Notes under the pieces: generated by a model | The model's input: the letters and a program-made list of their open reading frames with translations, nothing else | Databases searched by the model: none | Told to the model about the DNA's origin: nothing | NCBI GenBank assembly: GCA_020852275.1 | Contig: JADZBE010000017.1 | Coordinates: forward strand, 64,551-128,550 | Direction: 5' to 3' | From: Phycisphaerales bacterium | GTDB lineage: Bacteria; Planctomycetota; Phycisphaerae; UBA1845 | Length of the DNA stretch: 64,000 nucleotides | Shown: one piece after another, positions 2,533-64,000 of the stretch | Layout of the letters: every line of letters begins with the position of its first letter | How positions within the stretch are numbered: position 1 is the first letter of the stretch | Position numbers and translations under genes: made by a program

Positions 2533-2636
2533 CATTCGCTATTCGCCATTCGCCATTCGCTATTCGCTATTTGCCATTCAGCATTCAGCATTCAGCATTC
2601 GCGTTCGCCCTCGCTGGCGCTACGGGTTCTGATTTC
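2533..2636. repeat. heptanucleotide tandem array (CATTCGC/TATTCGC/CATTCAG, ~10 units) followed by the conserved motif CCCTCGCTGGCGCTACGGGTTCTGATTTC
   Basis: Direct reading of 2533-2602 gives cattcgc tattcgc cattcgc cattcgc tattcgc tatttgc cattcag x3 cattcgc. The motif at ~2608-2636 recurs at 28133-28161. Confidence 0.9.
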
Positions 2637-2673
2637 GGCCTTTCGACGTCTCAGCTTTCGTCTTTTCGGGGGT

Positions 2674-9733: not shown

Positions 9734-9867
9734 TCCGTCCGTGGTGAAAGGCGGCACTCGTCATTCCCGCGCAGGCGGAAATCCCGCGGTCCGGCGATGC
9801 GCCTTGGACCCCCGCCTGCGCGGGGGTAACGGCTCGCACGTCCTCTCCCGGGTTTCACCACGGTCTG
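9734..9867. mobile_element. MITE-like element, short copy (~134 bp), between the hydrogenase small and large subunit genes
   Basis: Ends are CCGTGGTGAAAGG...GGGTTTCACCACGG. Internal hairpins are CATTCCCGCGCAGGCGGAAATC and GACCCCCGCCTGCGCGGGGGT. It is homologous to the 162-bp copies at 23893 and 38984. Confidence 0.75.
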
Positions 9868-9904
9868 CCGGGCGGCGCGAACGCGAGGTCCGGTGATGCC
9901 GCGC

Positions 9905-10678
9905 TCAACGGGACGGTTGAAGCACTCCGCTGATCGCGTTTTCCCCATCGTCCTGGTACGCGCCATACAACCGCAGGCGATCCGCAATGCGGTCAAACGG
10001 GACGCCATAGCGCGCAGGGAATACCTCGCGCGCCGCCGCGACGGCGTCCGCGCCCAGCAGTCCGCGGCACCCCTCGCACACGGAACCGTAGGCCGGGCAG
10101 ATTGCCCGACAACCCGCTCGCGTCAGCGGTCCCATGCACAATTCGCCTTTCTCATACCTGCAAAGATTCCCCAGTTTCTTGCACTCCGTGCAGACCGGGT
10201 CCGCCGGCAATCGGAATTGCTTGCCGGTCAGCGCGCACTTGACGAAATGGAGAAACTCCTCTTTAACCATCGGACATCCCGGAAGCTCGTAGTCCACCTT
10301 GACAACAGCGCTGAGCGGCCGCGCGCTTGTGGTCGGAAACCACTTTGCCCCCGCGCCATAAACATATTCCCGATATTCCAGCGGCGGCTGCTGGTGCTTG
10401 AGCGTGTTCACGCCGCCCAAACAGGCGCAGGCGCCAATGGCGACCAGTGTCCTGCAATGCTCGCGCAGCTTGCGAATCTCCTCCTCGTCCTGCGGTGTGG
10501 AGACCGCGCCGTCCACAAAGCCGACGTCAATGTCCCACGCGCGCTCCGTCATGCCTTCGCGGAAGTTGACAATTTCCACTCCGCCAAGCAGCGCGAGGAG
10601 CTGATCCTCAAGCTCAAGAATGGCCAGCGAACACCCTTCGCAACTGGTCAGGCTGAAAATGGCAATCCTGGGTTTCAT
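9905..10678 (-). CDS. [NiFe] hydrogenase small (delta) subunit, group 3 type
   Basis: MKPRIAIFSLTSCEGCSLAILE... with distal Cys clusters (GACACLGG, CPGCP-like LPGCP, CTECK...CMGP...GC...CP). Its start codon shares one nt with the upstream gene's stop (TGATG). Confidence 0.88.
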   Translation of the reverse strand: MKPRIAIFSLTSCEGCSLAILELEDQLLALLGGVEIVNFREGMTERAWDIDVGFVDGAVSTPQDEEEIRKLREHCRTLVAIGACACLGGVNTLKHQQPPLEYREYVYGAGAKWFPTTSARPLSAVVKVDYELPGCPMVKEEFLHFVKCALTGKQFRLPADPVCTECKKLGNLCRYEKGELCMGPLTRAGCRAICPAYGSVCEGCRGLLGADAVAAAREVFPARYGVPFDRIADRLRLYGAYQDDGENAISGVLQPSR

Positions 10679-17339: not shown

Positions 17340-17401
17340 GATTCGAGGTCTCCTTTGCCACGGAGGGTGCAAGCGCCATGCGCGGTCGCACCCCGCCTGG
17401 G

Positions 17402-17499
17402 GTGACATGCCTGGCGTGACACGCCCGGCGTGGCATGCCTGGCGTGGCATGCCTGGCGTTGCACGCATGGGGTGGCATGCCTGGGGTGGCATGCTCTCG
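17402..17499. repeat. 14-bp tandem repeat x7 (consensus GTGGCATGCCTGGC) containing the palindrome GGCATGCC
   Basis: Direct reading gives gtgacatgcctggc gtgacacgcccggc gtggcatgcctggc gtggcatgcctggc gttgcacgcatggg gtggcatgcctggg gtggcatgctctcg. It lies in the hypF-hypC gap. Confidence 0.9.
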
Positions 17500-18751: not shown

Positions 18752-19032
18752 CCGTTACGCGCTCCCACTCTGCCAATCGTGCGCGACAACCCCTGGATAA
18801 TGTTGCAAAACGCGAGCCGCGGGGTTCAGCCCGCGCGAATTCTCCGATGAGTGAAAATGCCGTACAGACCATCCCGCAGGTTCCCCCGCAAGGCAGTATC
18901 CGTCCAGCGAGGGGAAGGACGAGGGTGAATGCCAGGTTGTTGAACAACGCCGTCACTGCCGCGCAGGCGGGAATCCAGCGGACCGGCGGTGCGCCCCAAC
19001 CCCCACCATCGCGGGGCAACGAACGACTCCAC

Positions 19033-23543: not shown

Positions 23544-23892
23544 GAATCCGATCGCTCCTTGAGGCGCGGCGCCCCGCAGACGACGCAGCGCACCTTGGGT
23601 GGTCTGGGCGGAGCGAGGGCGCCTCTCCTTATGTTCAAGACGATCGGCAACGCAAGAGGTTCGCCCGACGGCGAAAAGAAACCGGCTGATCCCGTCTGAG
23701 CGAGCGATTTCCAAGAAGAATCGGATGGGCACCCGTCCGTGGAGGAGGCGTCGCCGTTCCCAGTCGTGGGAATACAGGCCGCGGTCCCGCCCAGCCAGGC
23801 TGACCCGCCAAGAGCTGCTGACCCGGATCGTCGGGGCGGCGATGGCGCGAGCCCTTCCGCCCTCGCTTGCGCTTCGGGTTCTGAACCCCTAA

Positions 23893-24054
23893 CAGCCCGT
23901 GGTGAAACTCAGAACCAGTCGTGGGATCCGTCACCCCCGCGTAGGCGGGGGTCCGGTCCGCCCGGGAAAACCGCTGGATTCTCTCTCCTGGTAAGCTACC
24001 GACTGGATTCCCGCCTTCGCGGGAATGACGCGCGTCGCCTTTCACCACGGGCTG
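23893..24054. mobile_element. MITE-like element, full-length 162-bp copy
   Basis: Terminal inverted repeats are CAGCCCGTGGTGAAA ... TTTCACCACGGGCTG. Internal hairpins are GACCCCCGC-GTAG-GCGGGGGTC and GATTCCCGC-CTTC-GCGGGAATG. It is the reverse orientation of the copy at 38984. Confidence 0.8.
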
Positions 24055-24121
24055 CTAGCGCAAGCGAGGGAGCCATTTCAGAACCCGAAGCCCAAGCGAG
24101 GGAGCGGCCTTCCTCTCGAAG

Positions 24122-27947: not shown

Positions 27948-28219
27948 AAATCTCAAATCTCAAATCTCTGCCGGCAAGGAGCGAATGGCGAATGGCAAAC
28001 AGCAAATAGCAAATAGCGAATAGCGAATGGCGAATAGCGAATAGCTAATCGCTACCAGCTAGCGACGTCTCATTCCACATTCCACATTCCACATTCCAAA
28101 CTCCACACCCCACCTTCGACACTCGGTAGTCACCCTCGCTGGCGCTACGGATTCTAATTTCAGCATTCAGCATTCAGCATTCAGCATTCAGCACTCGGCA
28201 TTCTGCATTCTGCATTCAA
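27948..28219. repeat. composite of five heptanucleotide tandem arrays plus the CCCTCGCTGGCGCTACGG motif
   Basis: AAATCTC x3 at 27948-27968; GCGAATG/GCAAATA/GCGAATA x10 at 27981-28050; CATTCCA x4 at 28071-28098; motif at 28133-28161; CATTCAG x4 then CATTCTG x2 at 28164-28219. Confidence 0.9.
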
Positions 28220-28220
28220 C

Positions 28221-28255
28221 ATAAAGGGCGGGCCGAGTCCGCTCGCGCCCGCCCC
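28221..28255 (-). terminator. putative intrinsic terminator downstream of groEL1
   Basis: The minus strand reads GGGGCGGGC-GCGAGCGGACTCG-GCCCGCCC followed by TTTAT, ~60 nt after the groEL1 stop. Confidence 0.55.
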
Positions 28256-28312: not shown

Positions 28313-29923
28313 TCACCGGATCGCGTGGGCGATCGGCTTGGCGTCGTCCTTCAGCTCGGTCAGCATGACTTCCGTCGTCAGCAGCAGCCCCGCCACGCTG
28401 GCGGCGTTCTCCAGCGCGATGCGCGAGACCTTCGCGGGATCGACGATGCCGGCCTTGACCATGTCGGTGAACTCGCCCTTGCGCGCGTCGTAGCCGTGCG
28501 CGCCGCTTTTCTCCAGAATCTGCTCGATCACCACGTCGCCGTCCTCGCCGCAGTTCTCGACAATCGTCCGCGTCGGCAGCCGCAACGCGTGGGCCACGAT
28601 GTCCACGCCCGTCTTCTCATCGCCGCGCGCCTTGCTCCGAATCGCGTCGACCGCCTCGATGGCCCGCAGGAACGCCACGCCGCCGCCCGGCACGATGCCT
28701 TCCTCTGAAGCGGCCTTGGTCGCATGGAACGCGTCGTCCACCAGGTCCTTGCGCTCCTTGACTTCGATTTCGGTCGAGCCGCCGACGCGAATCACGGCCA
28801 CTCCGCCGGTGAGCTTCGCCAGCCGCTCCTGGAGTTTCTCGCGGTCGTAGTCGCTGGTCGTCTGGTCGATCTGCGTGCGGATCTGGTCCGCCTTCGCCTT
28901 GATTTCGTTCTTCTTTCCCGCGCCTTGGATGATCGTCGTGTCGTCCTTGGTGATGACCACGCGCTTGGCCGTACCCATCTGCGCCGTGGTGATGTTTTCG
29001 AGCTTGATGCCAAGGTCCTCGCTGATCAGCTCGCCGCCGGTGACGCAGGCGATGTCGCCCAGCAGCGCCTTGCGCCGATCGCCGAAGCCCGGCGCCTTCA
29101 CCGCGCAGCACTTCAGAATCCCACGCAGCTTGTTGACCACCAGCGTTGCCAGCGCTTCGCCGTCCACGTCCTCCGCGATGATCAGCAGAGGCCGGCTCGA
29201 CGTGACCACGCCCTCCAGCAACTTCACGAATTCGCGCAGGCTGCTGATTTTTTTCTCGTAGATGAGGATGTGCGGATCCTCGAGGACGCATTCGAGCGTG
29301 CCGGGATCGGTCATGAAGTAAGGCGAGATGTAGCCCTTGTCGAACTGCATGCCCTCAACCACCTCCAGCTCGTCTTCAAGGCTCTTGCCCTCCTCGATCT
29401 CGACGACGCCCTCATTGCCGACTTTCGCCAGCGCGTCGGCGAGCAGCCGGCCGACCTTCTCGTTGCCGTTGGCCGAGATGGTCGCCACCTTGGCGAGGTC
29501 TTCGTTGCCCTTTACCTTGACGGAGAGCTTGGCAATCGACTCGATCGCGGCCTTCACCGCCATGTCGATGCCGCGCTTCAGCGCCATCGGGTTCGCGCCG
29601 GCCGTGACGTGCTTAAGCCCTTCACGATAGATCGCCTCGGCGAAGACCGTGGCGGTCGTGGTGCCATCACCGACCACGTCGCTCGTCTTGGAGGCGACCT
29701 GGTTGAGCATCTTGGCGCCCATGTTCTGGAAGTTGTCGGGCAGCTCAACTTCTTTGGCGACGGTGACGCCGTCCTTGGTGACGCGCGGCGCGCCGTAAGA
29801 CTTCTGGAGCAGCACGTTGCGCCCCGTCGGTCCCATGGTGATCTTCACCACCGCCGCCAGCTTGGACACGCCCTCCAGCACCTGCTGCCGGGCGTCCTGA
29901 GAGAACATCATTTGTTTTGGCAT
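28313..29923 (-). CDS. groEL: chaperonin GroEL (copy 1, no Gly-Met tail)
   Basis: From [19 protein letters not shown]...VTLGP.GRNV...; conserved throughout; ends ...[13 protein letters not shown]. Confidence 0.93.
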
Positions 29924-29950
29924 TGCACAATCCTTACGAGTATCCGCGTG

Positions 29951-30248
29951 CCACTGCTCTGTGAGCAGTGCCACACGAGTGTCCGCGTGTCACACGAATA
30001 TGGGTGCGTCACACGAGTGTCCGTGTACCACACGATCGACCGTGTCCCACACGGGCGTCCGCGTGCCACTGCTCTGTGAGCAGTGGTTTTGAACTTCACG
30101 TAACGAATCAGGCACTGCTCCGCGAGCAGCACCACACGAGTGTCCGTGTGCCACTGCTCTGCGAGCAGTGGATTTGAACTTCAAGCAACGTCTCAAACAC
30201 TGCTCACAGAGCAGTGGTACAACCACAAACACTGCTCGCAGAGCAGTG
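29951..30248. repeat. array of six near-identical hairpins (C)CACTGCTC-NNN-GAGCAGTG(G) with repeated flanks
   Basis: Hairpins start at 29951, 30066, 30112, 30151, 30198 and 30230. The flanks ACACGAGTGTCCG(C/T)GTG and GG(T/A)TTTGAACTTCA are each repeated. The array fills the groES-groEL1 gap. Confidence 0.9.
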
Positions 30249-30257
30249 GCACGGCAC

Positions 30258-30657: not shown

Positions 30658-30768
30658 AATGCCGAATGCTGAATGCTGAATGCCGAATGCAAGAAGGTCG
30701 AATGCCGAAAGAAATGCCCGCGGACTGCCGACAGTCCTTTCGGCATTCGCCATTCGCCATTCGCCATT
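30658..30768. repeat. inverted heptamer arrays (AATGCCG/AATGCTG x5 ... CATTCGC x3) around a perfect 13-bp stem
   Basis: Stem CGAATGCCGAAAG (30699-30711) pairs with CTTTCGGCATTCG (30737-49). The 25-nt loop contains the inner hairpin GACTG-CCGA-CAGTC. Confidence 0.85.
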
Positions 30769-30770
30769 TC

Positions 30771-32414
<1,644 letters not shown>

Positions 32415-32531
32415 GAACTCCTGCTCCTGCAAAGGTCCAAGATGACGGCGGCCCGAGGTCCGCAGCGTCGCATGTTGTTCGTCGACTCGACGGCGGGGAA
32501 GAACCGGGCAAGACCTTCCCCTTGGGCCACA

Positions 32532-32547
32532 AGCAAGCCCAATGCCA
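32532..32547 (-). promoter_or_regulatory. candidate sigma54 promoter TGGCATTGGGCTTGCT
   Basis: Exact TGGCA(T)-N5-TTGCT match on the minus strand, ~120 nt upstream of the groEL2 ATG, in intergenic sequence. Confidence 0.45.
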
Positions 32548-32705
32548 GCCACTCACTCGGCAGCGTACCACGCAAGCACTTGATTGCCAACATGTTACGG
32601 CGGCGTCGCGGCTACCGCATGGAGAACCGTTCTGCCAGCTTGTCCGAAGCGTCAACCGGGTCGTCGAGCGGCTTGCCAAAATGTCAGTCGCGGCTCCAGC
32701 AGGGC

Positions 32706-34485: not shown

Positions 34486-34520
34486 GCGAATAGCGAATGG
34501 CGAATAGCGAAGAGCGATTG
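34486..34520. repeat. heptamer array GCGAATA/GCGAATG x5
   Basis: Direct reading just after the serA-like stop. It is followed by the hairpin GCACAGGT-TTCCCA-ACCTGTGC at ~34555-34576. Confidence 0.85.
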
Positions 34521-34660
34521 CTCCTGTGGCACCGGTTTATAACCATTGTCTGTAGCACAGGTTTCCCAACCTGTGCAAAGCGACCCGGATGGAAGAATGA
34601 TGCTTTTCAGTTTCGCTCCGATTCGGAATCCGGCCGGAGATTCTTCTTGAACGGCACTCC

Positions 34661-38983: not shown

Positions 38984-39145
38984 CAGCCCGTGGTGAAAGG
39001 CGACGCGCGTCATTCCCGCAAAGGCGGGAATCCAGCCGGCAGCTTACGAGGAACGAGAAACGACCAGTTTTCCAAGGCGGACTGGACCCCCGCCTGCGCG
39101 GGGGTGACAGATCCCACGACGGGTTTCGAGTTTCACCACGGGCTG
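38984..39145. mobile_element. MITE-like element, full-length 162-bp copy
   Basis: CAGCCCGTGGTGAAAGGCGACGCGCGTCATTCCCGCAAAGGCGGGAATCC...GGACCCCCGCCTGCGCGGGGGTGAC...GAGTTTCACCACGGGCTG. CAGG is present on both flanks. Confidence 0.8.
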
Positions 39146-39208
39146 CCAGGCGACATTCCCACGCCATGGGGGGTGCACTGTGCCATTCCACTTGGATCGA
39201 CGCGATGA

Positions 39209-45914: not shown

Positions 45915-45936
45915 GGCGGTGGGGAAACGAGCGTGG

Positions 45937-46093
45937 GGTTCAGGAATTGAGGTTCAGGGTTCAGGGTTCAGGCAAGGACCTACAACCATCCATACCCGAT
46001 CACCCGAGTACCCGAGCACCCGAGTACCCGAGTTCCCGCACGACGCACGATGCACGACGCACGACGCACGACGCACGACGCACGAAACACGAC
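45937..46093. repeat. three adjacent short tandem arrays: GGTTCAG x3-4, ACCCGAG(T/C) x4, GCACGAC x8
   Basis: Direct reading: 45937-45971, 46002-46036 and 46038-46093, all between the kinase stop and the NtrC-like start. Confidence 0.9.
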
Positions 46094-46116
46094 ACGCCTA
46101 ACCCAGATTCGCGAGA

Positions 46117-47484
46117 TTGACTATGACGGTCCGCATCTTGATTATCGAAGATGAGCAACTGATCCGCTGGTCCCTGCGCCAGAAGTTCGAGGCGCTGGGC
46201 TTTCACGTCACCGAGGCCGACTGCGGCGCCAAGGCGCTCGAGGCGCTGGAGAGCGGGATCTTCGATCTGATCATGCTCGACTACCGCCTGCCGGACATGA
46301 CCGGGCTGGACATCCTCTCGCACATCCGCGAGCGCGACCACGACGTGGTCGTCATCATGATGACGGCCTTCTCCACCATCGAAAGCGCCGTGGACGCCAT
46401 GAAGATGGGCGCGTACGACTACATCACCAAGCCCTTCGACATGGACCAGCTCCTGCGCAACGTCAACAAGGCGCTGGAGACGACCAAGCTGCGCCGCGAG
46501 GTCCGCCAGTACCGCGAGCACATGGAGAACGAGTACGGCATCTCCCGCATCGTCGGACAGGACGTCTGCATGTTGGAGCTGTTCGACATCATCCAGCGCG
46601 TGGCCGGCAGCGGCGCGTCCACCGTCTTCCTCCGCGGCGAGTCGGGCACGGGCAAGGATCTCGTCGCGCGGGTGATTCACTACAACTCGGACCGCGCGCC
46701 GCGCCCGTTCATGAACATCACCTGCACCGCGCTGTCCGAGAGCCTGCTGGAAAGCGAGTTGTTCGGGCACGAGCGCGGCGCGTTCACCGACGCCAAGTCG
46801 CTGAAGAAAGGGCTGTTCGAGTTGTCCGACGGCGGCACGATCTTCCTCGACGAGGTGGGCGACATGCCCGCGGGTCTGCAGGCCAAGCTGCTTCGCTTTC
46901 TCGAGGAGCGCACCTTCCGCCGCGTGGGCGGCACGACGGAGATATCCGTGGACGTCCGCGTGATCGCCGCCACCAACCGCGACATCGAAAAGGCCATCGA
47001 CCTGGGCCAGTTCCGCAGCGACCTGCTCTACCGGCTTAACGTCATCTCGATCCTGCTGCCTCCCCTGCGCGACCGTGGCAGCGACATCCGCCTGCTGGCG
47101 CAGCACCTCGTCGCGCGGTTTGCCAAGGAGTTCCGCAAGCCCGTGGGCGGCATCGACGAATCCGCCTATCAAAAGCTGGGGTCTTACGCCTGGCCTGGCA
47201 ACGTGCGCGAGCTGCGCAACGTGCTGGAGCGCGCCGTGCTCCTGAGCCGGGGCGAGACGCTCACCGCCGACGACGTCTTCCTCGGCGCGACCCGCGCGGC
47301 CGCGACGAACTCGCGCACCGGCTTCGTCCTCCCCGCCGAAGGGCTGGACCTCAAGGAGCTGGAGGGCGACCTGATCCGCCAGGCCATGGATCGCACCAGC
47401 AGCAACCAGACCCAGGCCGCCCGTCTCCTCGGTCTCCGCCGCGACGCGTTCCGTTACCGGCTGGAAAAACTGGGGATGCTGTAG
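46117..47484 (+). CDS. sigma54-dependent response regulator (NtrC/AtoC family: receiver + AAA+ + Fis-type HTH)
   Basis: [16 protein letters not shown]...[14 protein letters not shown]; Walker A GESGTGKD; GAFTDA (GAFTGA variant); C-terminal ...[26 protein letters not shown]. Confidence 0.92.
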
Positions 47485-47705
47485 CGATTCTAAGCGCCGG
47501 GTCATTCGATCGGCCGCGAACGAACCCCGCAGCATGGGCGACTCCCTGCCTTTCGCTGATCGTGGCACGCGGAGGATGTCGTGTGCGGGGGGGCATGGAG
47601 CGTTGCGTGCAGCGGATGCGATGCTGCCGCGCCCCGCCCCATGCCGTCCCAGGTTGCGTTATTGACACTCCGACAGGCACGTTGAACACGTTCCGCCAAA
47701 GGAGG

Positions 47706-48686
47706 CTACCGAAGTCGCGGGGTTGCCCGGATCCGCGGTTCCGTGGTCCCGCCGCCGGCTTGCACCGATTTCCATGTGAGCTTGCCGCTCGTGCAGAACG
47801 TCGTGCCGCACTCGCACGACAGCACGCCCGCATAGAGCGTCACCGGGCCGGTGGACAAAACGCAACCGGCTTCCTCGATCAGGTCGATCTCGTTGAGCGC
47901 GCTGTCCGAGTCCACGTACCAGGCGCTCGCGCCGGTTATCTGGGTGGAGACGGTGAATGTGCCCGCGTCGTTGACGATCCGCCAGCCGTCGTCGGTCCCG
48001 GTCTTGGCGCGGTTTTCGAGCCGGATGTGGTCGTCGGCCACGACGTAGGCCCGGTTGTCGAAGTTGACTTTGATGTATCCGTCCCCGTGGAGGGTCATCG
48101 AGCAGCTCTGGCTGCTGCACGTGCTGGTGGCCTTGAGGATCAGCTTGTCGTCGCCGTCAGTGTACTCCTCGATGACGGACCCCTTGTTCAATGCGATCAC
48201 GCCGCCATTGCCTTGGATGGTGTGTACGCCGTTGATCTTGAGCGTGCCCGGATCGCCGGGATGCACGCTGAGGTCGAACTGCCCGTCGAGCGTGGAGGTG
48301 AGGGTTCCGCCGTCGCCGAGCACGAGGGTCGAACCGCCCGTCAGGAACAGAGTGCTGCGGTCGTCCCCCTCGTCCTCGATGGTGAGCGTCTTGCAGTAGG
48401 CCGTCGTACTGCCGGGGATCACGACGTCGAAGTGCTCATCTCCGTCGTCGTCGGCGGGAATGACGGCGATTTTCGTCGAATCTGGAACACCGTGATTCCA
48501 GTTGTCGCCGACAGTCCAACTCGTTCCAGGTCCATCAAAACACGTTGTATTCACATCCTCGCAATCCACGAGGAGCGTGGCATTGGGGTTAGTGGCGATC
48601 GCTGGAATGCCAGGGATCACAAGGAACAGGGACAGCATGACCAAACCAAGGCCAAGGCCAAACCCGATAATCTTGGCGACTTTCAT
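47706..48686 (-). CDS. secreted hypothetical protein (signal peptide); lies in the more A/T-rich tract
   Basis: From MKVAKIIGFGLGLGLVMLSLFLV... with no recognisable family. It contains a TSWTVGDNWNHGVPDS motif similar to the one in the gene at 50584. Confidence 0.55.
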   Translation of the reverse strand: MKVAKIIGFGLGLGLVMLSLFLVIPGIPAIATNPNATLLVDCEDVNTTCFDGPGTSWTVGDNWNHGVPDSTKIAVIPADDDGDEHFDVVIPGSTTAYCKTLTIEDEGDDRSTLFLTGGSTLVLGDGGTLTSTLDGQFDLSVHPGDPGTLKINGVHTIQGNGGVIALNKGSVIEEYTDGDDKLILKATSTCSSQSCSMTLHGDGYIKVNFDNRAYVVADDHIRLENRAKTGTDDGWRIVNDAGTFTVSTQITGASAWYVDSDSALNEIDLIEEAGCVLSTGPVTLYAGVLSCECGTTFCTSGKLTWKSVQAGGGTTEPRIRATPRLR

Positions 48687-48845
48687 AATTTCATTCCTTT
48701 CATAGCGCGACAATGTTCAGAGTCGCGCATAATCGGTGAACAGGTTTCTAATCAAGGGCAACTGAAACCCACCAGGAGGTCTTTCAGTCGCAAAGTACGC
48801 GACAAACGCGTGCCCCAAAGCTGAAGCAGACTTCATCATTTTCCG

Positions 48846-50018
48846 TTACAGGGAATCGAATGCGTTCTGAAGGCGAGCGAAATCCGCCAAATCCAGATCG
48901 CCATCGTAGTCCTGATCCAGAAACCGACACTCGCACAAACCGTCCGTCCTTACGGGCCCGGTCATACATTTGTTGAAGACCGCGTAATCCCTCAGATCCA
49001 CGTCATCGTCGAACTCGCTGTCTCCGGTGCGCACGCGACGCATGAAGACCACAGCGTCCCGGTTGTCGAGAGTGTTTTTCCAGGCGACTTCTCCCCAGCC
49101 GTTCACGCTTCCCCGCGCCACGGAGTACTGGTCGTCACTGAGGCGATACAAACGCGCTCCCGTCTTCTCAGGATGATACAACCATGCGTTCCAAGTTCCG
49201 CGATCCCAATCCGAACGAGCAAAATAGACGTCGCCCGTGTCGCCGATGTTCGGCACCGAGGCGTCGACTGTGTCGAGAATAATCCGGGTGTCATCGTCCT
49301 CCCACAGTTCAAGGTCGCTTTGGGCGTCCCAAACGATTTGACCCCGGTTGTTGATCCTCGGCCCCTGGACTTGGGAATGAAACGATGGCAGGTCAACCAC
49401 AATCCCATCGCGGTAAAGCTGGATCGTACCCGCCCAGGGACTGACGCAGAAGTCCGTGCTCATCCAGGTAATCCAGCCGGCGTCGTTGATTTCAGTCTGC
49501 TGGAGCATCAACTCCGATGTATGGATCTGCTCCGTCTTCCGGCCATCAAACAAATAGAGGTCAGAAAGAAGAGGACACATCTCCCAACGAAAGCGAGACC
49601 AAACGGCCTCCCCCAAGTTGTTGATGGACGCATGAGCAAGAATGCGTTCCCCATCCTGCAGCAACGTTTCCACGCCATCCCGATAAAGAATCACCTGGTG
49701 TGCATTGAGACTGGTAATTCCGCGCTGCCAGATCATGTCACCCGAGTTGTTAAGATCCACTCCACTGTCCAGGACGTCATTGTCCGTGATCCGCACTATA
49801 CGACCGTTGTCGTAGAGCATGATCTCAGCCGTCCACCAGCTTCCGGAGAACTTCTGGGCGTAGGCAATCTCGCCGCAGTCGTTCAATGAAGGCCACTGGA
49901 TATGGTAGTCCGACACGACAGCTTCGACGATCTCGAAGCCGGGCGGGATTTCAACCTGCGCGAAACCCGCCGCTGATACGGCGGCAAACATGCTGGCGAA
50001 GGGAAAGCAGCGACGCAT
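48846..50018 (-). CDS. secreted seven-repeat (propeller-like) protein with a dockerin/EF-hand-like C-terminus
   Basis: From MRRCFPFASMFAAVSAAGFAQ. Repeats of type (L/I)N(N/D)xG(E/D/Q)(I/V/A)(A/V/I)W appear about seven times. The C-terminus reads ...DQDYDGDLDLADFARLQNAF. Confidence 0.6.
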   Translation of the reverse strand: MRRCFPFASMFAAVSAAGFAQVEIPPGFEIVEAVVSDYHIQWPSLNDCGEIAYAQKFSGSWWTAEIMLYDNGRIVRITDNDVLDSGVDLNNSGDMIWQRGITSLNAHQVILYRDGVETLLQDGERILAHASINNLGEAVWSRFRWEMCPLLSDLYLFDGRKTEQIHTSELMLQQTEINDAGWITWMSTDFCVSPWAGTIQLYRDGIVVDLPSFHSQVQGPRINNRGQIVWDAQSDLELWEDDDTRIILDTVDASVPNIGDTGDVYFARSDWDRGTWNAWLYHPEKTGARLYRLSDDQYSVARGSVNGWGEVAWKNTLDNRDAVVFMRRVRTGDSEFDDDVDLRDYAVFNKCMTGPVRTDGLCECRFLDQDYDGDLDLADFARLQNAFDSL

Positions 50019-50083
50019 GGCATTGACTCCTGAACCAAGCGATGGGAAACGTGGCACGCCGGCCGTGCGAGCGCCGGATATGA

Positions 50084-50584
50084 TCAGTTCGTCTCGATCC
50101 CGGCCTTGCCCACCAGCTTGACGAAGTCGATGTTCCCGCCGCCGATCGTCACCGTGTCGCAGGTCAGGACGCGTTCAGTGCCGTCGGCATCGAACTACGC
50201 GTAACAGAGCTCGCCCCCGAAACTCAGCGTCAGGTCGTCGATCGTGCGGGATGCGTCGAAGACGACGTTAAAGCCGCACTCAGTAAACGTCGCGTCGTCC
50301 GTCGTGGCGCACGGATAGAAGCATGCCCCGCCGAAACCGCTCCAGTTGTCGCGGTCGTTCCACAGGTCCGACGCATTGTCGTTGCCCGTCCAGGTGAACG
50401 AGGCGAGCGCCACCGTCGCCGGATCGACCGCGACGAACCCCGCCGCGGCGGCCACCCGAGCCAACCCTTCCGGAGGTGAGCCCGAGGCCGCGCCCCGCAT
50501 CATCCCTCCCATCGTCAGCAACCCGGCGGCGAGACACAACGTCCCCGCCAGCACTCGATTCTGTACGATTCTACCACGTTTCAT
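50084..50584 (-). pseudogene. small secreted protein gene interrupted by an in-frame TAG (50195-50197); a pseudogene, an assembly error or readthrough
   Basis: MKRGRIVQNRVLAGTLCLAAG... (AAGGAGG RBS) ...GGELCYA-TAG-FDADGTERVLTCDTVTIGGGNIDFVKLVGKAGIETN-TGA. Of the 36 codons after the TAG, 33 have G/C at the third position (counted by hand). Confidence 0.45.
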
Positions 50585-51233
50585 GTTCGACCTCCTTGAA
50601 AAAAAGGAGAGAAAAAAGCGCCTCGCGAACGTCGCGAAGCGCCGGAAGGACCGGGGAATGGACTCCGGAAGGGCGAAGCCCGGTGCGCGGCCGCGGGCAT
50701 GCGAATCGGCGGGGAGAGAGCCGCGCGGGCTTGAAGCGGGGCCGGGACGCTGGAAAACGCCGGAAGACGCCGGAATCCAATGATAGCAGACGCAGTGGGC
50801 GCCGGGATGCGGGGGACGGAAACGCTCGAACACCTGGATAATGCTGACGGCGGATGCTGAAAGGAAGGGGGGAGCGGCTCACGGCGCCCAGCAGCCTCTC
50901 TCTCTATCTCTCTCTGTCCGCGCAGGGAACGACCCGACGAGAAAGGCCAGACCGTCGCAGCGTGCTGGATCGTGCAGGAGCATGGGCATCACTCCTTATC
51001 GAGAGCAAGTTATCGGGTTATCGGCTGGGTGTCAGGCGGCATTTCAGAAGAATTGTGGGCGGGCGTGTGGGACGGAAACGGCGGCTGGGCCGCGTCGCGC
51101 CGCCGCGCGCCCGTTCGGAATTGGCCTCCGCCGCCGATGAAGGTACATTACCGACCGCCTTGGCGGGATGCGATGCGACCCCGCACGCAACGGCGAGAGG
51201 CGCGGGCGATACATAAGTTCTTTGTTTGCAAGA

Positions 51234-51317
51234 GCCGGAGTGGCGGAACCGGCAGACGCGCGGGATTCAAAATCCCGTTCTGGCAACAGAGTGTGGGTTC
51301 GATTCCCACCTCCGGCA
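51234..51317 (+). tRNA. tRNA-Leu (anticodon CAA), copy 1
   Basis: Hand-folded: acceptor GCCGGAG/CTCCGGC; anticodon stem CGGGA/TCCCG with loop TTCAAAA; long variable arm; T arm GTGGG-TTCGATT-CCCAC; no encoded CCA. Confidence 0.88.
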
Positions 51318-51654
51318 TCCTTTCCTTGCCCTCATTCGCTTCGTCGCGCGCGGAGACCGCACCGTCCTCATGCGCCTCGTCGTGCGCTGAGACAGCGCCA
51401 CCCCGCCCCAGGCGAGGTCGGCATCCGTCGTCGAGGTCACCTTCAGCGTGCCGTCCACCCAGACCTTCAGCGTGGCCCCGCTGCATTTTACCTTGAGGGC
51501 GTTCGGCGTGGAAGGCGTAAACGCCGCGCTGCCCAGCACCGTCAACTCGCCGGCCAGCAGGAAGGCTACATTGACGAGGTTCGGGTAGGAGGCGATCCTA
51601 CTCCCAATGCGGCCCCTATGGGGAGCGGGCTGCTCAAGCCCCTTCAGTGCGGGA

Positions 51655-51738
51655 GCCGGAGTGGCGGAACTGGCAGACGCGCGGGATTCAAAATCCCGTT
51701 CTGGCAACAGAGTGTGGGTTCGATTCCCACCTCCGGCA
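51655..51738 (+). tRNA. tRNA-Leu (anticodon CAA), copy 2 (one D-arm difference from copy 1)
   Basis: Same fold as copy 1; GGAACTGG here versus GGAACCGG there. Confidence 0.88.
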
Positions 51739-51788
51739 TCCTTTCCTTGCCCTCATTTGCTTCGTCGCGCGCGGAGACCGCACCGTCC

Positions 51789-53306
51789 TCATGCGCCTCG
51801 TCGTGCGCTGAGACAGCGCCGGATTCGCGCGCAGGTGGCATCCTTGCCCAGCAGCGCGAGGCTGTCGCCGATGGGCGGGCTGACGGTCGAGCCGGTGATT
51901 GCCACGCGCAGCGGCTGGGCCACGTCGCCCATCTTCGCGCCGGACGCGGCACAGTACGTCTCAATCAACTTGTGCAGACCCTCAGCGGTCCAGTCGGCAA
52001 ATGCATCGAGCTTCGCCAGGATCGCCTCCAGCGTTCGGTAGCCCGCCCCCTCGTTCTTCTCCAGCACCTTTCGCACGGCGTCGGGGTTGATCGGACCGCC
52101 GTCGGGCCAGACCTCCTCGTCGCGCTGCACGAGGAACCGCGCCGAGTCCACCACGTCGCGGAACGTGCGCAGACCTTTCTTGGCCGCCAGCAGCCGCGCG
52201 AGCATTGCGTCATCGAACTTCAGCAGCGGCGACGCGTTGACGGCGAGGAAGTCCTTGAACGCCGCCAGCAGCCGGAGTGGCGGAGTCTTCGCGCACCAGT
52301 CGGTGTTGAACGCCAGGAGCTTGTCCCGGTCGAACCGGGCGTTGGTCTTGCCGACGCGCTCGATGGAGAAGCGCTCGATCAGCTCGTCGACCGAGAAGTG
52401 TTCACGGTCGTCGCCGCTGGACCAGCCCAGCAGCGCGATGAAGTTCAGCAATGCCTCCGGCAGGTAGCCCGAGACGCGGAAGTCGTGCACTTCGATCTCC
52501 GGCGGTGTGCGGCCTTCCTTGATCGCTTTCTCCTTGTCGCGCTTGCTCATCTTGGTTCCGTCCATGCTGAAGATGATGGGCGGATGCGCGTAGGACGGCG
52601 TGGCGAACTTCAGCGCCCGCTGCATGGCGATGTGCTTGGGCGTGTTCATCAGGTGTTCCTGCCCGCGGATGACGTGCGTGACGCGCATCAGCTCGTCATC
52701 CACGACGCAGGCGAAATGATACGTGGGCCAGCCGTCGCTCTTGAGGATCACGAAATCCTCGAGCTCCTCCGCGGGCATCACGACGTCGCCGAGGATTTCG
52801 TCGTGAACGGTGATCGGCTCGCCGGGCATCTTGAAGCGGACGACCACGGCCTTGCCGGCCGCTTGAGCCGCTTCACCCTGCGCGATCGTCGGCAGCGGGC
52901 TGGGTCGGACGTACTTGTAAGAGCGTTTCTCGACGCGGGCCGACTCGCGCGAGGCCTCCAGCTCCTCCGATGTCTCGAAGGCGTAGTAGGCGTCGCCGCT
53001 TTCGAGCAGGCGCCGGGCGTGGGCGTGATACAGATCGAGACGCTCACTCTGGAAGTACGGCGCGCACGGTCCGCCTACGACCGGCCCTTCGTCCCATGTC
53101 AGTCCAAGCCAGCGCAGATCTTCAAGGATCTTGCCGACCGAATCCTCGACGTGGCGATCCCGGTCCGTGTCCTCGATGCGCAGAATGAACGTCCCGCCGA
53201 CCTTCCGGGCCACCAGCCAGTTGTACAAGACGGTGCGGGCGCCGCCGATGTGCAGGTATCCCGTCGGAGACGGCGCGAAACGAACGCGAACAAGACGATC
53301 GGACAT
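51789..53306 (-). CDS. gltX: glutamate--tRNA ligase
   Basis: MSDRLVRVRFAPSPTGYLHIGGARTVLYNWL...ILRIEDTD... and the KMSKRD class-I signature. Confidence 0.92.
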   Translation of the reverse strand: MSDRLVRVRFAPSPTGYLHIGGARTVLYNWLVARKVGGTFILRIEDTDRDRHVEDSVGKILEDLRWLGLTWDEGPVVGGPCAPYFQSERLDLYHAHARRLLESGDAYYAFETSEELEASRESARVEKRSYKYVRPSPLPTIAQGEAAQAAGKAVVVRFKMPGEPITVHDEILGDVVMPAEELEDFVILKSDGWPTYHFACVVDDELMRVTHVIRGQEHLMNTPKHIAMQRALKFATPSYAHPPIIFSMDGTKMSKRDKEKAIKEGRTPPEIEVHDFRVSGYLPEALLNFIALLGWSSGDDREHFSVDELIERFSIERVGKTNARFDRDKLLAFNTDWCAKTPPLRLLAAFKDFLAVNASPLLKFDDAMLARLLAAKKGLRTFRDVVDSARFLVQRDEEVWPDGGPINPDAVRKVLEKNEGAGYRTLEAILAKLDAFADWTAEGLHKLIETYCAASGAKMGDVAQPLRVAITGSTVSPPIGDSLALLGKDATCARIRRCLSARRGA

Positions 53307-54502: not shown

Positions 54503-54661
54503 CTGCGCTGAGAGGCGAGGCTCGTCATTCCCGCGCAGGCGGAAATCCAGCCGGGTGCTTTCGAGGAGGCGCTCATTCAGCGGTTTTCCGGGGAGGACTG
54601 GACCCCCGCCGGCGCACGGGTGACAGGCCCCTAGTCCGATCTTGAGTTCCACCCCAGACCG
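54503..54661. mobile_element. degenerate MITE-like copy
   Basis: Retains CTCGTCATTCCCGCGCAGGCGGAAATCCAGCC and GGACCCCCGCC; the terminal repeats have decayed (GAGTTCCACCCCAGACCG). Confidence 0.5.
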
Positions 54662-55096
54662 CAAGCGCCAAGCTTGGACTCCCAATCCTCACGCGGCGGG
54701 TCCGCGGCCGTGGACTCGCGACACCCAACAAGACTCACTGGACAGTCAGCCGCGCAAGCTCGGGGATGAGATTCCAGAGTTGTTGCTTCGGCCACGGCGC
54801 CAACGAATCACCGGCTGGAAATCCGGTGCCCCACCCCGGAATTGTCCTTGCTCCCAGGGTGCTACGTCTCGCTCCGCCCGAGCCACCTCCCGCGCAGTTG
54901 CATCGCGGAGCGCTGAAGGAACCGAGCTTCCCCTAACCGTTCCTTTCTGGGAGGCGGGGCGAATCGCTCCTCGGCCCGCGCGCGGCGTGGTCGGTCGTGT
55001 CTTGCTGATTTTGAGGGGGTATCGCTCTGCGTGGAAGCTCCGCGCCGTGGAGGCGGGCTCTGCGCGGCGCACGGAAGTCATGCGAGCGATAAGATC

Positions 55097-61565: not shown

Positions 61566-64000
61566 ATGTTTGCAAAGTCTCCGTGGCGACGGGCGTCTGT
61601 GTTCGCGGTCGTCGCGTTTCTGCCCGCGCTCCTGCTGGTTTCGTGCGTGAATCAGGTCGCGCCTCCCGCGAATGACAATGAAGACGGCGCCGCGGGGCGA
61701 CCGATCTCCGGGCGCCTGGTGATCAGTCCCGATGAGCTGGTGCTTTCCAGCGCCGGGGAGACCCTGCAGGTGACGGTGCAGGGCGCGTTCAGCAACGGCT
61801 CGACGCGGAACCTGACCGCCGCATCGACGGGAACCCGGTACAGTCTCAGTTCGACGGGCGTGGCGACGGTGACGGGGGGGGGCCTGCTGACGGCGCTGGC
61901 GGAGGGTCGCACAACGCTGATCGTGGTCAACGGCGGCAACTCGGCGCGCAAGACCGTCGTCGTTTCGTTCGCGCCGGCGTTCGAGAGCCTGCAGATCGAG
62001 CCTTCCGACCTGACGTTCACGGATCCCGTGGACTCCGTTCAGTTGGCCGTGTTCGGCGTGCGGGGCGACGGCGGCCGCGAGGACGTGACCGCGCGCGTGA
62101 CCTCGTTTGAAAGCTCGGACGGCGCCACGGTTTCGGTGGATGCCGCGGGGCTTGTCGCTCCGCTGCAGGACGGCGTGGCGACGGTCACGGCTCACCTCGG
62201 CTCGCTGACGGCTTCGATCGTCGTGACGGTGCGATTCTCGGCGCCGCCTCCGGAAGGTTCGGAGTTGGTGGCGCTGAACACCCTGCCGACGGCATTCACG
62301 CTTAACTCGAACGGCGCGACGCAGCAGCTTCAGGTGCTCGGCACGTTCGAGTTCGAGAATGAGCAGGGCGACACGGTTCGAGTCACCTCGGACCTGACGG
62401 CGCCTTCAACCGGGACGACGTACGTTTCGTCCAACGCCGAAGTGGCTTCCGTGGATTCCCGTGGCTTGGTGACGGCCCGGCTCGACGTCGGCAGCGGGTT
62501 TGCCAACATCACGGCGAGCAACAGCGGCATATCTACCACCAGCCGCGCGACGGTGGCGATTGGCGGCGGCGGGGGCGGCGGGGGGGGCGGCGGCGGGGAA
62601 GGCGGTGGAGGCGGTGAGCAGCAGGGCCCGGCCTTCGGCTGGGAGTTTCAACCGCTGCCGTCTCCGCGCAACAGCCATGCCATGGCATTCGACAGCGCGC
62701 GCAACGTCGCGGTGCTGTTCGGCGGCTACGGCCAGAAGATCGAGGGTGACACCTGGGAGTGGAACGGATCGGGCGAGTGGAAACTGGCGTCCAGCCATGG
62801 TCCTTCGCCGCGGTACGCCCACGCGATGGCGTACGACGCCGTTCGTGGCGTGACCGTTCTGTACGGCGGCACCAACGGCGCAGCGCGCAACGGTGAAACA
62901 TGGGAGTGGGACGGTGCGGCGTGGCGGCTGGCGGCGACGACGGGACCCGGACCGCTGAGTTCACACGCGATGACGTACGACGCGGCGCGCGGCGGCGTGA
63001 TCCTCTTCGGCGGCTCCGACGAGAACCGGTCCCTGAACAGAAACACCTGGTCGTGGGATGGCGCGGCGTGGACGCTGCTGGCAGATGCCGGTCCATCACC
63101 CCGCATCCTGACGGCGCTGTGCTACGACAGCGCCCGGCAAGTCGTCGTGCTGTACGGCGGCGATGAAATCGAGGACGAAAAGAGGCCCGGTGGAGGCGAT
63201 CCCGGCGTCAACGGGGAGACGTGGGAGTGGAACGGAGCGGCTTGGAGCTTCATCACGACTTCCGGCCCCTCGCCGCGGAAGGGGCACGTGCTGACGTACG
63301 ATTCCGTGCGGCAGGTGTCGGTGCTCAATGGCGGTCTGGACGGCGCGTTTGACGGGGAGACATGGACGTGGAACGGTCAAGCATGGGTGCTGATCGGCTC
63401 GGGCGGACCCAGCCCCCGCTCATCTCATGCCATGGTCTTCGACTCCGCCCGCGGTCACTGCTTCATTTACGGCGGGTACGACGGGACGGATGACGGGGAG
63501 GCGTGGAGCTGGGACGGCGCCCGTTGGGTGCTGCGGGCGGACAGCACACGCCCCACGCCGCGCCATCTGCACACCATGGCGTTCGACTCGATCCGCGGCG
63601 TGACGGTGCTGTTCGGCGGGTCGGACGGCGAACTGGACGGGGAAACGTGGGAGTATGACGGACGAGTGTGGCTGCTTCGCAGCACCACCGGTCCGTCGCC
63701 CCGGCGCAGCGCCGCGATGGTGTTCGACAGCGTCCGGCGGGGCTGCGTCCTCTTCGGCGGCGACAACGGAGAAGCCGACACCCGAACGTGGGTCTGGAAC
63801 GGCGCTTCCTGGAGCGTGATTGCCAACGGCGGTCCGGCGCCGCGGAGCGGACACGCGATGAGCTACGATTCCGACCGCAATGTGACCGTTCTGTTCGGCG
63901 GATTCGACGGAAACGTGAATGGGGAGACATGGGAGCTGTCCGGCGCGCAGTGGACCCTGCGCTCGACTCTGGGGCCAGGCGGGCGCACCGAACACGCGAT
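61566..64000 (+). CDS. lipoprotein with Ig-like (Big_2-type) domains, a poly-Gly linker and Kelch-type repeats; 3' end beyond the window
   Basis: My own translation gives MFAKSPWRRASVFAVVAFLPALLLVSC (lipobox). About three Big_2-like units follow (LQVTVQGAFSNGSTRNLT..., VQLAVFGVRGDGGREDVT..., LQVLGTFEFENEQGDTVRVT...), then GGGGGGGGGGGEGGGGGE. After that, repeated units of type PSPR..HAM.YD..R...VLFGG......ETWEW.G..W appear at least 10 times. It is missing from the ORF track because no stop lies in the window. Confidence 0.8.
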   Translation, partial: MFAKSPWRRASVFAVVAFLPALLLVSCVNQVAPPANDNEDGAAGRPISGRLVISPDELVLSSAGETLQVTVQGAFSNGSTRNLTAASTGTRYSLSSTGVATVTGGGLLTALAEGRTTLIVVNGGNSARKTVVVSFAPAFESLQIEPSDLTFTDPVDSVQLAVFGVRGDGGREDVTARVTSFESSDGATVSVDAAGLVAPLQDGVATVTAHLGSLTASIVVTVRFSAPPPEGSELVALNTLPTAFTLNSNGATQQLQVLGTFEFENEQGDTVRVTSDLTAPSTGTTYVSSNAEVASVDSRGLVTARLDVGSGFANITASNSGISTTSRATVAIGGGGGGGGGGGGEGGGGGEQQGPAFGWEFQPLPSPRNSHAMAFDSARNVAVLFGGYGQKIEGDTWEWNGSGEWKLASSHGPSPRYAHAMAYDAVRGVTVLYGGTNGAARNGETWEWDGAAWRLAATTGPGPLSSHAMTYDAARGGVILFGGSDENRSLNRNTWSWDGAAWTLLADAGPSPRILTALCYDSARQVVVLYGGDEIEDEKRPGGGDPGVNGETWEWNGAAWSFITTSGPSPRKGHVLTYDSVRQVSVLNGGLDGAFDGETWTWNGQAWVLIGSGGPSPRSSHAMVFDSARGHCFIYGGYDGTDDGEAWSWDGARWVLRADSTRPTPRHLHTMAFDSIRGVTVLFGGSDGELDGETWEYDGRVWLLRSTTGPSPRRSAAMVFDSVRRGCVLFGGDNGEADTRTWVWNGASWSVIANGGPAPRSGHAMSYDSDRNVTVLFGGFDGNVNGETWELSGAQWTLRSTLGPGGRTEHA

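Follow-up and report, generated by a model that had tools for sequence, protein, structure and literature searches.

Tandem arrays with a 7-nt period occupy intergenic spacers throughout a 64-kb window of bacterial DNA (the whole stretch analysed here, 64,000 nucleotides at positions 64,551 to 128,550 of contig JADZBE010000017.1, Phycisphaerales bacterium assembly GCA_020852275.1), including two spacers of a chaperone cluster that contains groEL, groES and dnaJ. The arrays are specific in period and non-coding in location, and they often form convergent pairs with complementary arms and the potential to fold into long, imperfect stem-loops. A period-7-specific, sequence-unspecific process fills the spacers with several unrelated units, and the arrays stay at fixed spacers across a species split although their turnover far outpaces that of the DNA around them. 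We think it probable that they belong to the known class of heptanucleotide simple sequence repeats, made by slippage and tolerated in spacers, here in a new host lineage.

Tandem arrays of period 7 in the window

Arrays were detected with Tandem Repeats Finder (TRF) and, independently, with a self-match scan for runs of at least three units, both applied to the window. The self-match scan returned 10 runs at period 7 and none at periods 5, 6 or 8-13, and 30 Markov-1 simulations of the window gave 0 period-7 runs. The density of period-7 runs was ~156/Mb, compared to 6/Mb in 1.3 Mb of unrelated bacterial DNA around dnaJ that served as the control (8 runs, 4 of them from a single Verrucomicrobiae contig), an enrichment of ~25-fold. 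An excess of this period had been proposed as a check by an earlier reading of the DNA (the sequence-only reading); run within the window, the check showed a strong excess, with 10 runs against none at the neighbouring periods.

TRF reported 10 arrays of 3-10 copies each, nine of them with 0% indels, and detected higher-order periods of 14 and 21 nt inside arrays. In the dominant family, each unit combines a core of five bases, GAATG (complement CATTC), with two bases that vary. Unrelated heptamers coexist in the window (GAATGNN, GAGATTT, GGTTCAG and GCACGAC by TRF), and units shift blockwise along the arrays. The sequence-only reading had listed five loci with a strict 7-nt period and units that change stepwise. 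TRF recovered period-7 arrays at all five, and every unit it had quoted is present, as is the stepwise change. The strict period holds at ten arrays; it fails at one array of locus 5, where an octamer, TACCCGAG, is repeated 5.8 times. The list was also incomplete, since a 14-nt (2 x 7) array downstream of hypD had been overlooked (Table 1).

Gene context of the arrays

All arrays lie outside open reading frames (ORFs) with coding-like GC3 and outside Pfam-confirmed genes, in agreement with the earlier description of them as intergenic, and every one lies between co-directional genes, as judged by Pfam on the flanking genes. Their placement relative to genes, another of the checks suggested beforehand, is non-random. 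As also proposed, several sit inside apparent transcription units, for example between the GC-rich hairpin that follows groEL and the dnaJ start codon. This hairpin looks like a terminator and is kept in the sister species described below; it was unflagged by a consensus terminator scan. The consensus scan of the chaperone cluster found no sigma-70-like promoter and left all array hairpins unflagged.

A search of the whole window with Rfam 15 at gathering score returned two tRNA-Leu genes and nothing else, and of the 20 window proteins scanned with Pfam, none is a reverse transcriptase or a transposase. For dnaJ, pgm and the response regulator, the best matches all come from metagenome-assembled genomes (MAGs) of Phycisphaerae or Planctomycetota. 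The host is therefore a member of the Phycisphaerae, which bears out the earlier suggestion of a high-GC host of the Planctomycetes-Verrucomicrobia-Chlamydiae (PVC) type.

Remodelling of the arrays in a sister species

The closest genome, GCA_964526695.1, encodes a DnaJ that is 96% and a response regulator that is 98% identical to those of the window. At the nucleotide level the two are 85-92% identical, and we therefore treat it as a sister species. A contig from the Logan collection, L211, encodes a Pgm that is 97% identical and probably belongs to the sister-species lineage. Comparison with close relatives had been recommended, and like the checks on period and placement it left the sequence-only reading unrefuted: arrays with the window's unit families are found in all four comparable sister-species spacers, with copy number, units and interiors remodelled. 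BLAST alignments between the window and the sister species break within the array spacers.

Between groEL-b and dnaJ, the sense strand of the window reads: hairpin, (GAATGCA)2, (GAATGCT)4-5, a 29-nt motif, (GGAATGT)4, about ten (C/T)ATTCGC units, (GAGATTT)3 and ATG. The sister species has the same hairpin, followed by (GAATGGC)3, 120 nt of unrelated sequence with a large hairpin, ~13 CATTCNN units ending in (CATTCGC)4, and ATG. The spacer between groEL-a and groES runs in each species from GAATG-type units through a central hairpin to CATTC-type units, and the variants differ. Between serA and gidB, both have GAATRGC-type arrays right after the stop codon. In the kinase-regulator spacer only the GCACGAC array that adjoins the regulator is common to both (8 units in the window versus ~21 in the sister species). 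The rest of this spacer is made up of GGTTCAG and TACCCGAG arrays in the window, and of an CGAAACGN octamer array and (GAATGGC)4, with a copy of a small hairpin element on each side of the latter, in the sister species.

Relatives at 72-82% protein identity had no period-7 arrays near dnaJ or the kinase-regulator pair in the 7-21 kb sampled; GCA_015075705.1 and GCA_048499695.1 are two array-free relatives. In the relatives at 82% (L209, L210), there is a 26-nt overlap between the kinase and regulator genes (~10001-10026), while in the window (45915-46123) and the sister species (contig L208, 9526-9872) they are separated by 200-350 bp consisting almost entirely of tandem arrays. This array-filled spacer is therefore a recent gain of the lineage. 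The locus 1 orthologue was not recovered, as L211, the sole close contig, ends 37 nt past pgm, within repeats; in relatives at 79% the synteny at this locus differs. The comparison amounts to a natural experiment, in which sister species at ~88% nucleotide identity have rewritten their arrays at the same four spacers, and the distant relatives sampled are without them.

Could the arrays be an artefact of assembly or sequencing, or chance low-complexity sequence? Short-read contigs do break at arrays: L211 ends inside one, and a second Logan contig, L001 (SRR11294022), switches partner inside one. However, 109 nt of the arrays close to dnaJ are identical in L001 and the window, and the arrays of the sister-species contig L082 are matched exactly by a further Logan contig, L083. 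As the arrays recur base for base in independent public assemblies, they are not assembly artefacts. With arrays at the same sites in a sister species and none expected from the simulations, we regard this explanation as practically negligible.

The junction in L001 (1-311) was treated with caution. The dnaJ of this contig is 99.9% identical to that of the window, and the contig switches inside a TATTCGC run to a different upstream sequence, with one extra unit, after the 109 matching nucleotides, at a possibly chimeric junction. The upstream part contains an inverted repeat resembling CIRCE (controlling inverted repeat of chaperone expression; TTAGCACTC-N9-GAGTGCCAA), further heptamers (GGTGAGT x3) and, on the opposite strand, the beginning of another groES. 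The join reflects either a second chaperonin locus brought in by a repeat-induced assembly chimera or a real rearrangement. We set it aside as evidence for strain-level rearrangement because it may be a de Bruijn-graph chimera formed in the TATTCGC run. For MAGs of this group, the practical consequence is that short-read assemblies break at the arrays and can be joined chimerically through them.

Convergent pairing and folding potential

The most informative feature of the anatomy is convergent inverted pairing, which the sequence-only reading had overlooked. A GAATG-type array is followed by a CATTC-type array at loci 2 and 3 and in both matching sister-species spacers (L082). We considered this order as a polarity relative to transcription and dropped the idea, as a convergent pair reads alike on both strands. 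The real contrast is therefore between convergent and divergent (CATTC then GAATG) layouts.

A metagenome scan for four GAATG cores at 7-nt spacing returned at least 120 contigs, with GC contents of 0.32-0.74. By BLAST, these loci (among the matches listed) share no homology with the window and its relatives beyond the arrays. Arrays with the GAATG core are therefore widespread; the metagenome loci document the spread of the array type and are not relatives of the window locus. Among the matches listed, the contigs also hold further heptamer units: in addition to the GAATG arrays by which they were selected, they contain 168 period-7 runs, compared to at most 9 for each of the periods 5, 6 and 8-12.

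In the matches listed and the two genomes taken together, neighbouring opposite-strand arrays were convergent in 18 cases and divergent in 1 (binomial p = 7.6e-5), and the single divergent case sits between two convergent pairs. In the same set, the variable dinucleotides of paired arms agree in 20 of 58 units (34%), compared to 6.6% across loci. The purine-rich arm also comes first in three inverted pairs of other units (L012, L129 and L183). Previously reported for Xanthomonas alone, this convergent, purine-first rule constrains any mechanism.

L012 is a contig of a Verrucomicrobiae MAG (CAWFZJ010000008.1; 12877-12911, 18939-19035) and carries four heptamer arrays of other units in 21 kb (AAGGCTG, AAACGCA and TGAGGGT), with one pair convergent, (GGCTGAA)n ... 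(GCCTTCA)n. Heptamer arrays within the PVC group thus extend beyond this Phycisphaerae lineage.

Folding was uneven between spacers. The sister groEL-dnaJ spacer (L082) had a fold z-score of -7.7, with (GAAUGGC)3 pairing perfectly with (GCCAUUC)3-4 across ~200 nt, next to the dnaJ start. The groEL-groES spacer gave -4.0 in the window and -1.9 in the sister species, and the window groEL-dnaJ spacer gave -1.5.

These regularities bear on the possibility that the pairs are selected structural elements, with the stem-loop serving as a bidirectional attenuator or terminator, or as a stabiliser of mRNA 3' ends, and so setting the expression ratio of the neighbouring genes. A purine-first order might then be selected because the RNA after the hairpin would be pyrimidine-rich and would hybridise only weakly with the DNA, whichever way transcription runs. 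Across the species split the pairs keep their type and position despite the change in sequence, and both the 18:1 orientation bias in the combined set and the arm complementarity agree with such a role. In the window groEL-groES spacer a T6 run follows directly after the paired arrays on the sense strand, and in Xanthomonas comparable repeats are transcribed and their pair type is preserved between species (PMC4692102). However, the other pairs lack a T-run, the consensus terminator scan flags no pair, several arrays are unpaired, and the arms of the window groEL-dnaJ pair are complementary at only 5-6 of 7 positions (z = -1.5). Two genomes are also too few to count compensatory change. We therefore hold selected structure to be possible but unlikely as the main explanation.

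A dispersed 29-nt motif

According to the sequence-only reading, a conserved motif of ~29 nt abuts two of the arrays. Two exact copies, where 0 are expected, do abut arrays; three further, diverged copies lie elsewhere and touch none, so the motif is not an array-specific appendage. It is a dispersed element of small size that is often found with arrays, though not in every case. Its sense strand reads GAAATCAGAACCC, then a short GC-rich segment, GTAGCGCCAGCGAGGG, and the first 14 nt (GAAATCA GAACCCG) share the heptamer register of the array next to them. The reverse complement contains GTAG, without a clean palindrome. With five copies in the window and few in relatives, the motif is too rare for covariation analysis.

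The sister-species form, GAAATCAGAACCCCTCACGCAAGTGAGGGG, makes a perfect 8-bp hairpin with a GCAA loop. Two complete copies of it lie around the GAATGGC array in the L208 kinase-regulator spacer, and a truncated copy is found in L211 right after pgm, at the contig end. The GAAATCAGAACCC element is absent from the kinase-regulator spacer of the window, which gives one presence/absence difference. The same order recurs at window locus 1, in L211 and in L208: a stop codon is followed by CGAAA-type octamer repeats, then by the element and, a few bases on, by a GAATG array.

A composite small mobile element was therefore weighed, in which a module of ~30 nt, made up of GAAATCAGAACCC and a short GC-rich hairpin whose loop is of the GNRA type, would move with, or seed, CGAAACGN octamer and GAATGNN arrays. 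The order of octamer repeats, element and GAATG array at window locus 1, at the end of L211 and twice in the L208 kinase-regulator spacer speaks for it, as do the five copies in the window, the heptamer register of the first 14 nt, and the presence of the element in L208 but not in the corresponding window spacer, which has the form of an insertion polymorphism between sister species. On the other hand, three of the five window copies are away from arrays, most arrays have no element nearby, and neither a target-site duplication nor a candidate transposase was found (20 window proteins scanned). The copy number is too small for a model to be built, and arrays of unrelated units, or in unrelated taxa, cannot all stem from the GAAATCAGAACCC element. 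We consider this origin improbable.

Two other interpretations of the motif were rejected. As a sigma-54 promoter (TGGCGC-N5-GTTCT) it would have a poor -12 element and an orientation opposite to both flanking genes. Nor is it the terminal inverted repeat of a ~170-nt element in the window that resembles a miniature inverted-repeat transposable element (MITE), as it flanks only one of five MITE copies. The MITE-like element itself is bounded by the terminal inverted repeats CAGCCCGTGGTGAAAGGCG ... AGTTTCACCACGGGCTG, and two GC hairpins, CGTCATTCCCGCGAAGGCGGGAATCC and GGACCCCCGCCTGCGCGGGGGT, lie within it. It occurs in 4-5 copies in the 64 kb, all intergenic (9745-9871, 18951-18995 (partial), 23890-24050 (reverse), 38994-39149 and 54509-54665).

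Small dispersed repeats embedded in heptamer arrays have reportedly been described in Nostoc, by Elhai and colleagues in 2008. The 29-nt motif resembles them, as they are reported, in length (21-29 nt), hairpin potential, the presence of several dispersed copies, and a frequent position in or abutting heptamer arrays. It shares no sequence similarity with them, and the hint of mobility is the one presence/absence difference.

Relation to known repeat systems

The sequence-only reading named a single comparable class, the short tandemly repeated repetitive (STRR) heptamers of heterocystous cyanobacteria. These were reportedly described by Mazel and colleagues in 1990, with units CCCCAGT, TTGGTCA and CAACAGT. 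The analogy is apt: as is said of STRRs, the window has tandem heptamers in intergenic and intra-operon spacers, several families, and spacers that are variable but structured in close relatives. The units and the phylum are different, and the likeness is one of function and architecture, with no homology implied. STRRs are not the sole comparable class, however. The long simple sequence repeats (LSSRs) that Mrazek 2007 described for many free-living bacteria, the GGGAATC repeats of Xanthomonas, the TAACTGA repeats of marine Beggiatoaceae, cyanobacteria and Bacteroidetes, and the GATAGRA-derived satellites of Chloroflexus (Subirana and Messeguer 2019) are also known. An excess of period 7 in bacterial spacers has been on record since 1990 and 2007.

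Mrazek, Guo and Shah (2007), as summarised in PMC4679880 and PMC4692102, surveyed LSSRs of 5-11 and found heptanucleotides to be the commonest category in the majority of LSSR-rich genomes, which are typically large and belong to non-pathogens. According to the same summaries, the excess has been put down to the polymerase being in contact with ~7 nt, which would favour slippage. The window resembles this class in its over-represented 7-nt period, its non-coding arrays and the many units per genome, and its host is likewise a high-GC non-pathogen, probably with a large genome. It differs from the LSSRs, as they are summarised there, in that the Phycisphaerae lineage and the GAATGNN family were not found in the literature searched. 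That search, which left most subscription journals outside it, also found no description of heptamer arrays in Planctomycetota. What is new is a phylum-level host (Phycisphaerae) for a known heptamer-array phenomenon.

The closest likeness in layout is to the GGGAATC arrays of Xanthomonas, which are intergenic, lie mostly between co-directional genes, are mostly transcribed, and include convergent pairs, 70-75 of them in each genome (Rehm et al. 2015; PMC4692102). The window shares the location mostly between co-directional genes and the convergent inverted pairs in which the purine- or G-rich strand leads. Gene context is kept in the sister species, while length and sequence vary and the pair type is preserved, and there is a GAAT core in common (GAATCGG there, GAATGGC here). 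In contrast, the GAATGNN, CATTCNN and GCACGAC units of the window have no GGG and are more heterogeneous within an array. Since they have no G3 tracts, the G-quadruplex feature of the Xanthomonas repeats is inapplicable.

TAACTGA arrays, in whose description cold-shock proteins are discussed as readers of heptamers (MacGregor 2015; PMC4679880), are similarly intergenic, often just upstream of start codons, and mixed with other heptamers, and the corresponding spacers of close relatives are shorter and repeat-free. There, however, one forward unit dominates and inverted sets are rare (1 in 170), whereas here the units are mixed and pairs are common. Another possibility is that the arrays serve as a putative multivalent platform, in which the 7-nt unit would be the footprint of a single-strand-binding protein (cold-shock or S1-type OB-fold) at chaperone and other leaders. 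Bacillus CspB binds heptamer direct repeats with one protein per heptamer, in the account reviewed in PMC4679880. Several window arrays end ~10-35 nt from start codons that have no Shine-Dalgarno sequence (dnaJ, response regulator), and the pyrimidine-rich CATTC arm is always the one closest to the downstream gene (among the matches listed and the two genomes). Yet GAGATTT, GGTTCAG, GCACGAC, GAATGNN and octamers stand side by side, which speaks against a single sequence-specific reader, and the array sequences are unconserved between the sister species. We judge a platform to be very unlikely.

Repetitive extragenic palindromic (REP) sequences, bacterial interspersed mosaic elements (BIMEs) and the REP doublets known as REPINs are also intergenic and hairpin-forming, have a fixed inverted configuration, and have been proposed as terminators or mRNA stabilisers. 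However, REPs are single palindromes of 20-40 nt with a GTAG/CGTC tag and a REP-associated tyrosine transposase (RAYT), while the arms in the window are tandem arrays of variable length. No RAYT or Y1 transposase was found among the window genes scanned. A CRISPR array, with repeats of 23-47 nt set apart by unique spacers of similar length, was rejected, as the 7-nt units run head to tail without spacers. Phase-variable contingency loci were also rejected: the arrays lie between housekeeping genes (chaperones, pgm/gcvT, serA/gidB and a two-component pair), outside ORFs, and have no overlapping sigma-70-like promoter.

How the arrays may arise

What could generate such arrays? On the reading that we favour, slippage in tolerant spacers, slipped-strand mispairing of one to three units would both generate and alter them, which fits the higher-order periods of 14 and 21 nt. 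Fold-back or template switching could make and homogenise both arms of a pair. Because 7 is not a multiple of 3, arrays would persist only where reading frames stay intact, that is, in spacers. Any function would be secondary and structural: at paired arrays, the DNA or the polycistronic RNA may fold into hairpins, which could make transcription pause or terminate, or shield 3' ends, between neighbours such as groEL and dnaJ. Among the roles listed by the sequence-only reading (binding platform, slippage hot spot, spacer), all of them candidates, the slippage hot spot is the best supported.

Several observations weigh against slippage as a full account. Plain slippage does not explain the preference for 7 nt. 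Nor does it account for the 5' position of the purine-rich arm in nearly all pairs; this asymmetry calls for a strand-specific factor or selection. Persistence at four spacers after ~10-15% divergence exceeds the expectation for simple neutral microsatellites, and suggests selection or a continuing generating process bound to the site. Hairpin formation is also uneven, as the window groEL-dnaJ spacer folds only marginally better than shuffled sequences (z = -1.5), and neither locus 5 nor the AAATCTC array is matched by an inverted partner.

One mechanism that would address the asymmetry, in place of replication slippage, is a strand-specific activity that acts where spacers are broken or nicked and extends the DNA 3' ends there by purine-rich units of ~7 nt, with the extended ends then joined. 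If true, it would account for the convergent layout, which would have the topology of two telomeres fused head to head around captured filler or small elements, for a constant period with variable sequence, and for a spacer of 200-350 bp between genes that overlap in relatives. In the sister groEL-dnaJ spacer, the purest and mutually complementary units are outermost rather than central, which argues mildly against it. We regard this activity as very unlikely.

Table 1. Positions of the arrays, spacers, motif copies and hairpins in the window (strand as read; genes of a spacer by their own strand).
Feature	Position	Strand	Sequence or units	Context	Source
Locus 1	2533-2602	+	CATTCGC / TATTCGC / CATTCAG, 10 units	pgm/gcvT sense (minus) strand reads GAATGNN	TRF
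14-nt (2 x 7) array	17395-17494	+	GCCTGGCGTGGCAT x7	spacer downstream of hypD	TRF
Locus 2a	27948-27968	+	(AAATCTC)x3	directly upstream of dnaJ start codon; sense strand GAGATTT	TRF
Locus 2b	27980-28049	+	(AGCGAAT/AGCAAAT)x10	dnaJ sense strand (C/T)ATTCGC; 3' arm of convergent pair	TRF
Locus 2c	28071-28107	+	CATTCCA x5.3	sense strand GGAATGT	TRF
Locus 2d/e	28159-28222	+	(CATTCAG)x5, CACTCGG, (CATTCTG)x2-3; TRF unit TTCAGCA x9.1	sense strand GAATGCT/GAATGCA; 5' arm, begins directly after groEL hairpin	TRF
Locus 3 left arm	30658-30709	+	(GAATGCC/GAATGCT)x7; TRF unit AATGCCG x7.3		TRF
Locus 3 central hairpin	30722-30737		GGACTG-CCGA-CAGTCC	between arms, nested in perfect 12-bp stem GAATGCCGAAAG/CTTTCGGCATTC	
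Locus 3 right arm	30739-30768	+	(CATTCGC)x4; TRF unit TTCGCCA x4.3	adjoins groEL-a stop codon at 30771	TRF
Locus 4	34486-34517	+	(GCGAATA/GCGAATG)x4.6	10 nt past serA-like stop codon, upstream of gidB	TRF
Locus 5a	45951-45972	+	GGTTCAG x3.1	after globin-coupled histidine kinase stop codon	TRF
Locus 5b	45993-46038	+	(TACCCGAG/CACCCGAG)x5.8	octamer array	TRF
Locus 5c	46037-46093	+	CGCACGA x8.1	~30 nt upstream of sigma-54 response regulator start	TRF
Locus 1 spacer		minus		upstream pgm, downstream gcvT	Pfam
Locus 2 spacer		minus		upstream groEL-b, downstream dnaJ	Pfam
Locus 3 spacer		minus		upstream groEL-a, downstream groES	Pfam
Locus 4 spacer		plus		upstream serA-like dehydrogenase, downstream gidB	Pfam
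Locus 5 spacer		plus		upstream globin-coupled histidine kinase, downstream sigma-54 response regulator	Pfam
GC-rich hairpin	28226-28254	-	GGGCGGGC...GCCCGCCC then TTTATGTT	just downstream of groEL-b	direct reading
Motif copy 1	2608-2636	+	minus strand GAAATCAGAACCCGTAGCGCCAGCGAGGG	CGAAA-type repeats before, GAATG array after	
Motif copy 2	28133-28161	+		joined in register to locus 2d/e array	
Diverged motif copy	23860-23885	+	CCCTCGCTTGCGCTTCGGGTTCTGAA	left flank of MITE-like element, away from arrays	
Two diverged motif copies	24053-24070, 24085-24102	-		inverted orientation, right flank of same MITE-like element	
CGAAA-type octamer/near-octamer repeats	window 2637-2673; L208 9535-9578; L211 4257-4283		CCGAAACG, AAACGCCA	between stop codon and GAAATCAGAACCC element	

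Other features of the window

The chaperone cluster has two groEL paralogues (28313-29974 and 30771-32552) of ~74% nucleotide identity, with a single groES between them. The order groEL-groES-groEL-dnaJ is kept in the sister species, where grpE comes next (L082). No CIRCE operator was visible in the groEL-groES-groEL cluster of the window. The spacer from groES to groEL-b (29940-30250) is taken up by repeats of other kinds: the palindrome CACTGCTC-NNN-GAGCAGTG in five copies, a tandem repeat of 19 nt (x5.4) and a repeat of 85 nt (x1.9); the corresponding sister-species spacer (L082 7861-8055) has a wholly different sequence.

In the serA-gidB spacer the array is followed by two short hairpins (34520-34580), CACAGGTT-TCCC-AACCTGTG and CACCGGTTT-N-AAACCGGTG. 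These are kept in the sister species (L082 3420-3478) and may be the real terminator of this spacer.

Further along, a tandem duplication (51227-51399 and 51648-51820) consists of two 173-nt copies, 421 bp apart and 98% identical, each with a tRNA-Leu(CAA) gene (51234-51317 and 51655-51738). Just upstream of these genes, the region 47700-50850 has a lower GC content (0.57 at 48-50 kb), and its three ORFs (335, 403 and 212 aa) gave no Pfam match; it could be an integrated element. Finally, seven copies of a repeat lie at 62655-63910 with a spacing of 141-144 nt (two gaps are 285 and 321 nt), and are 61-73% identical over 80 nt. As the spacing is a multiple of 3, they are presumably protein repeats of the beta-propeller type, possibly within minus-strand ORFs (e.g. 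62533-63099 and 63420-63995).

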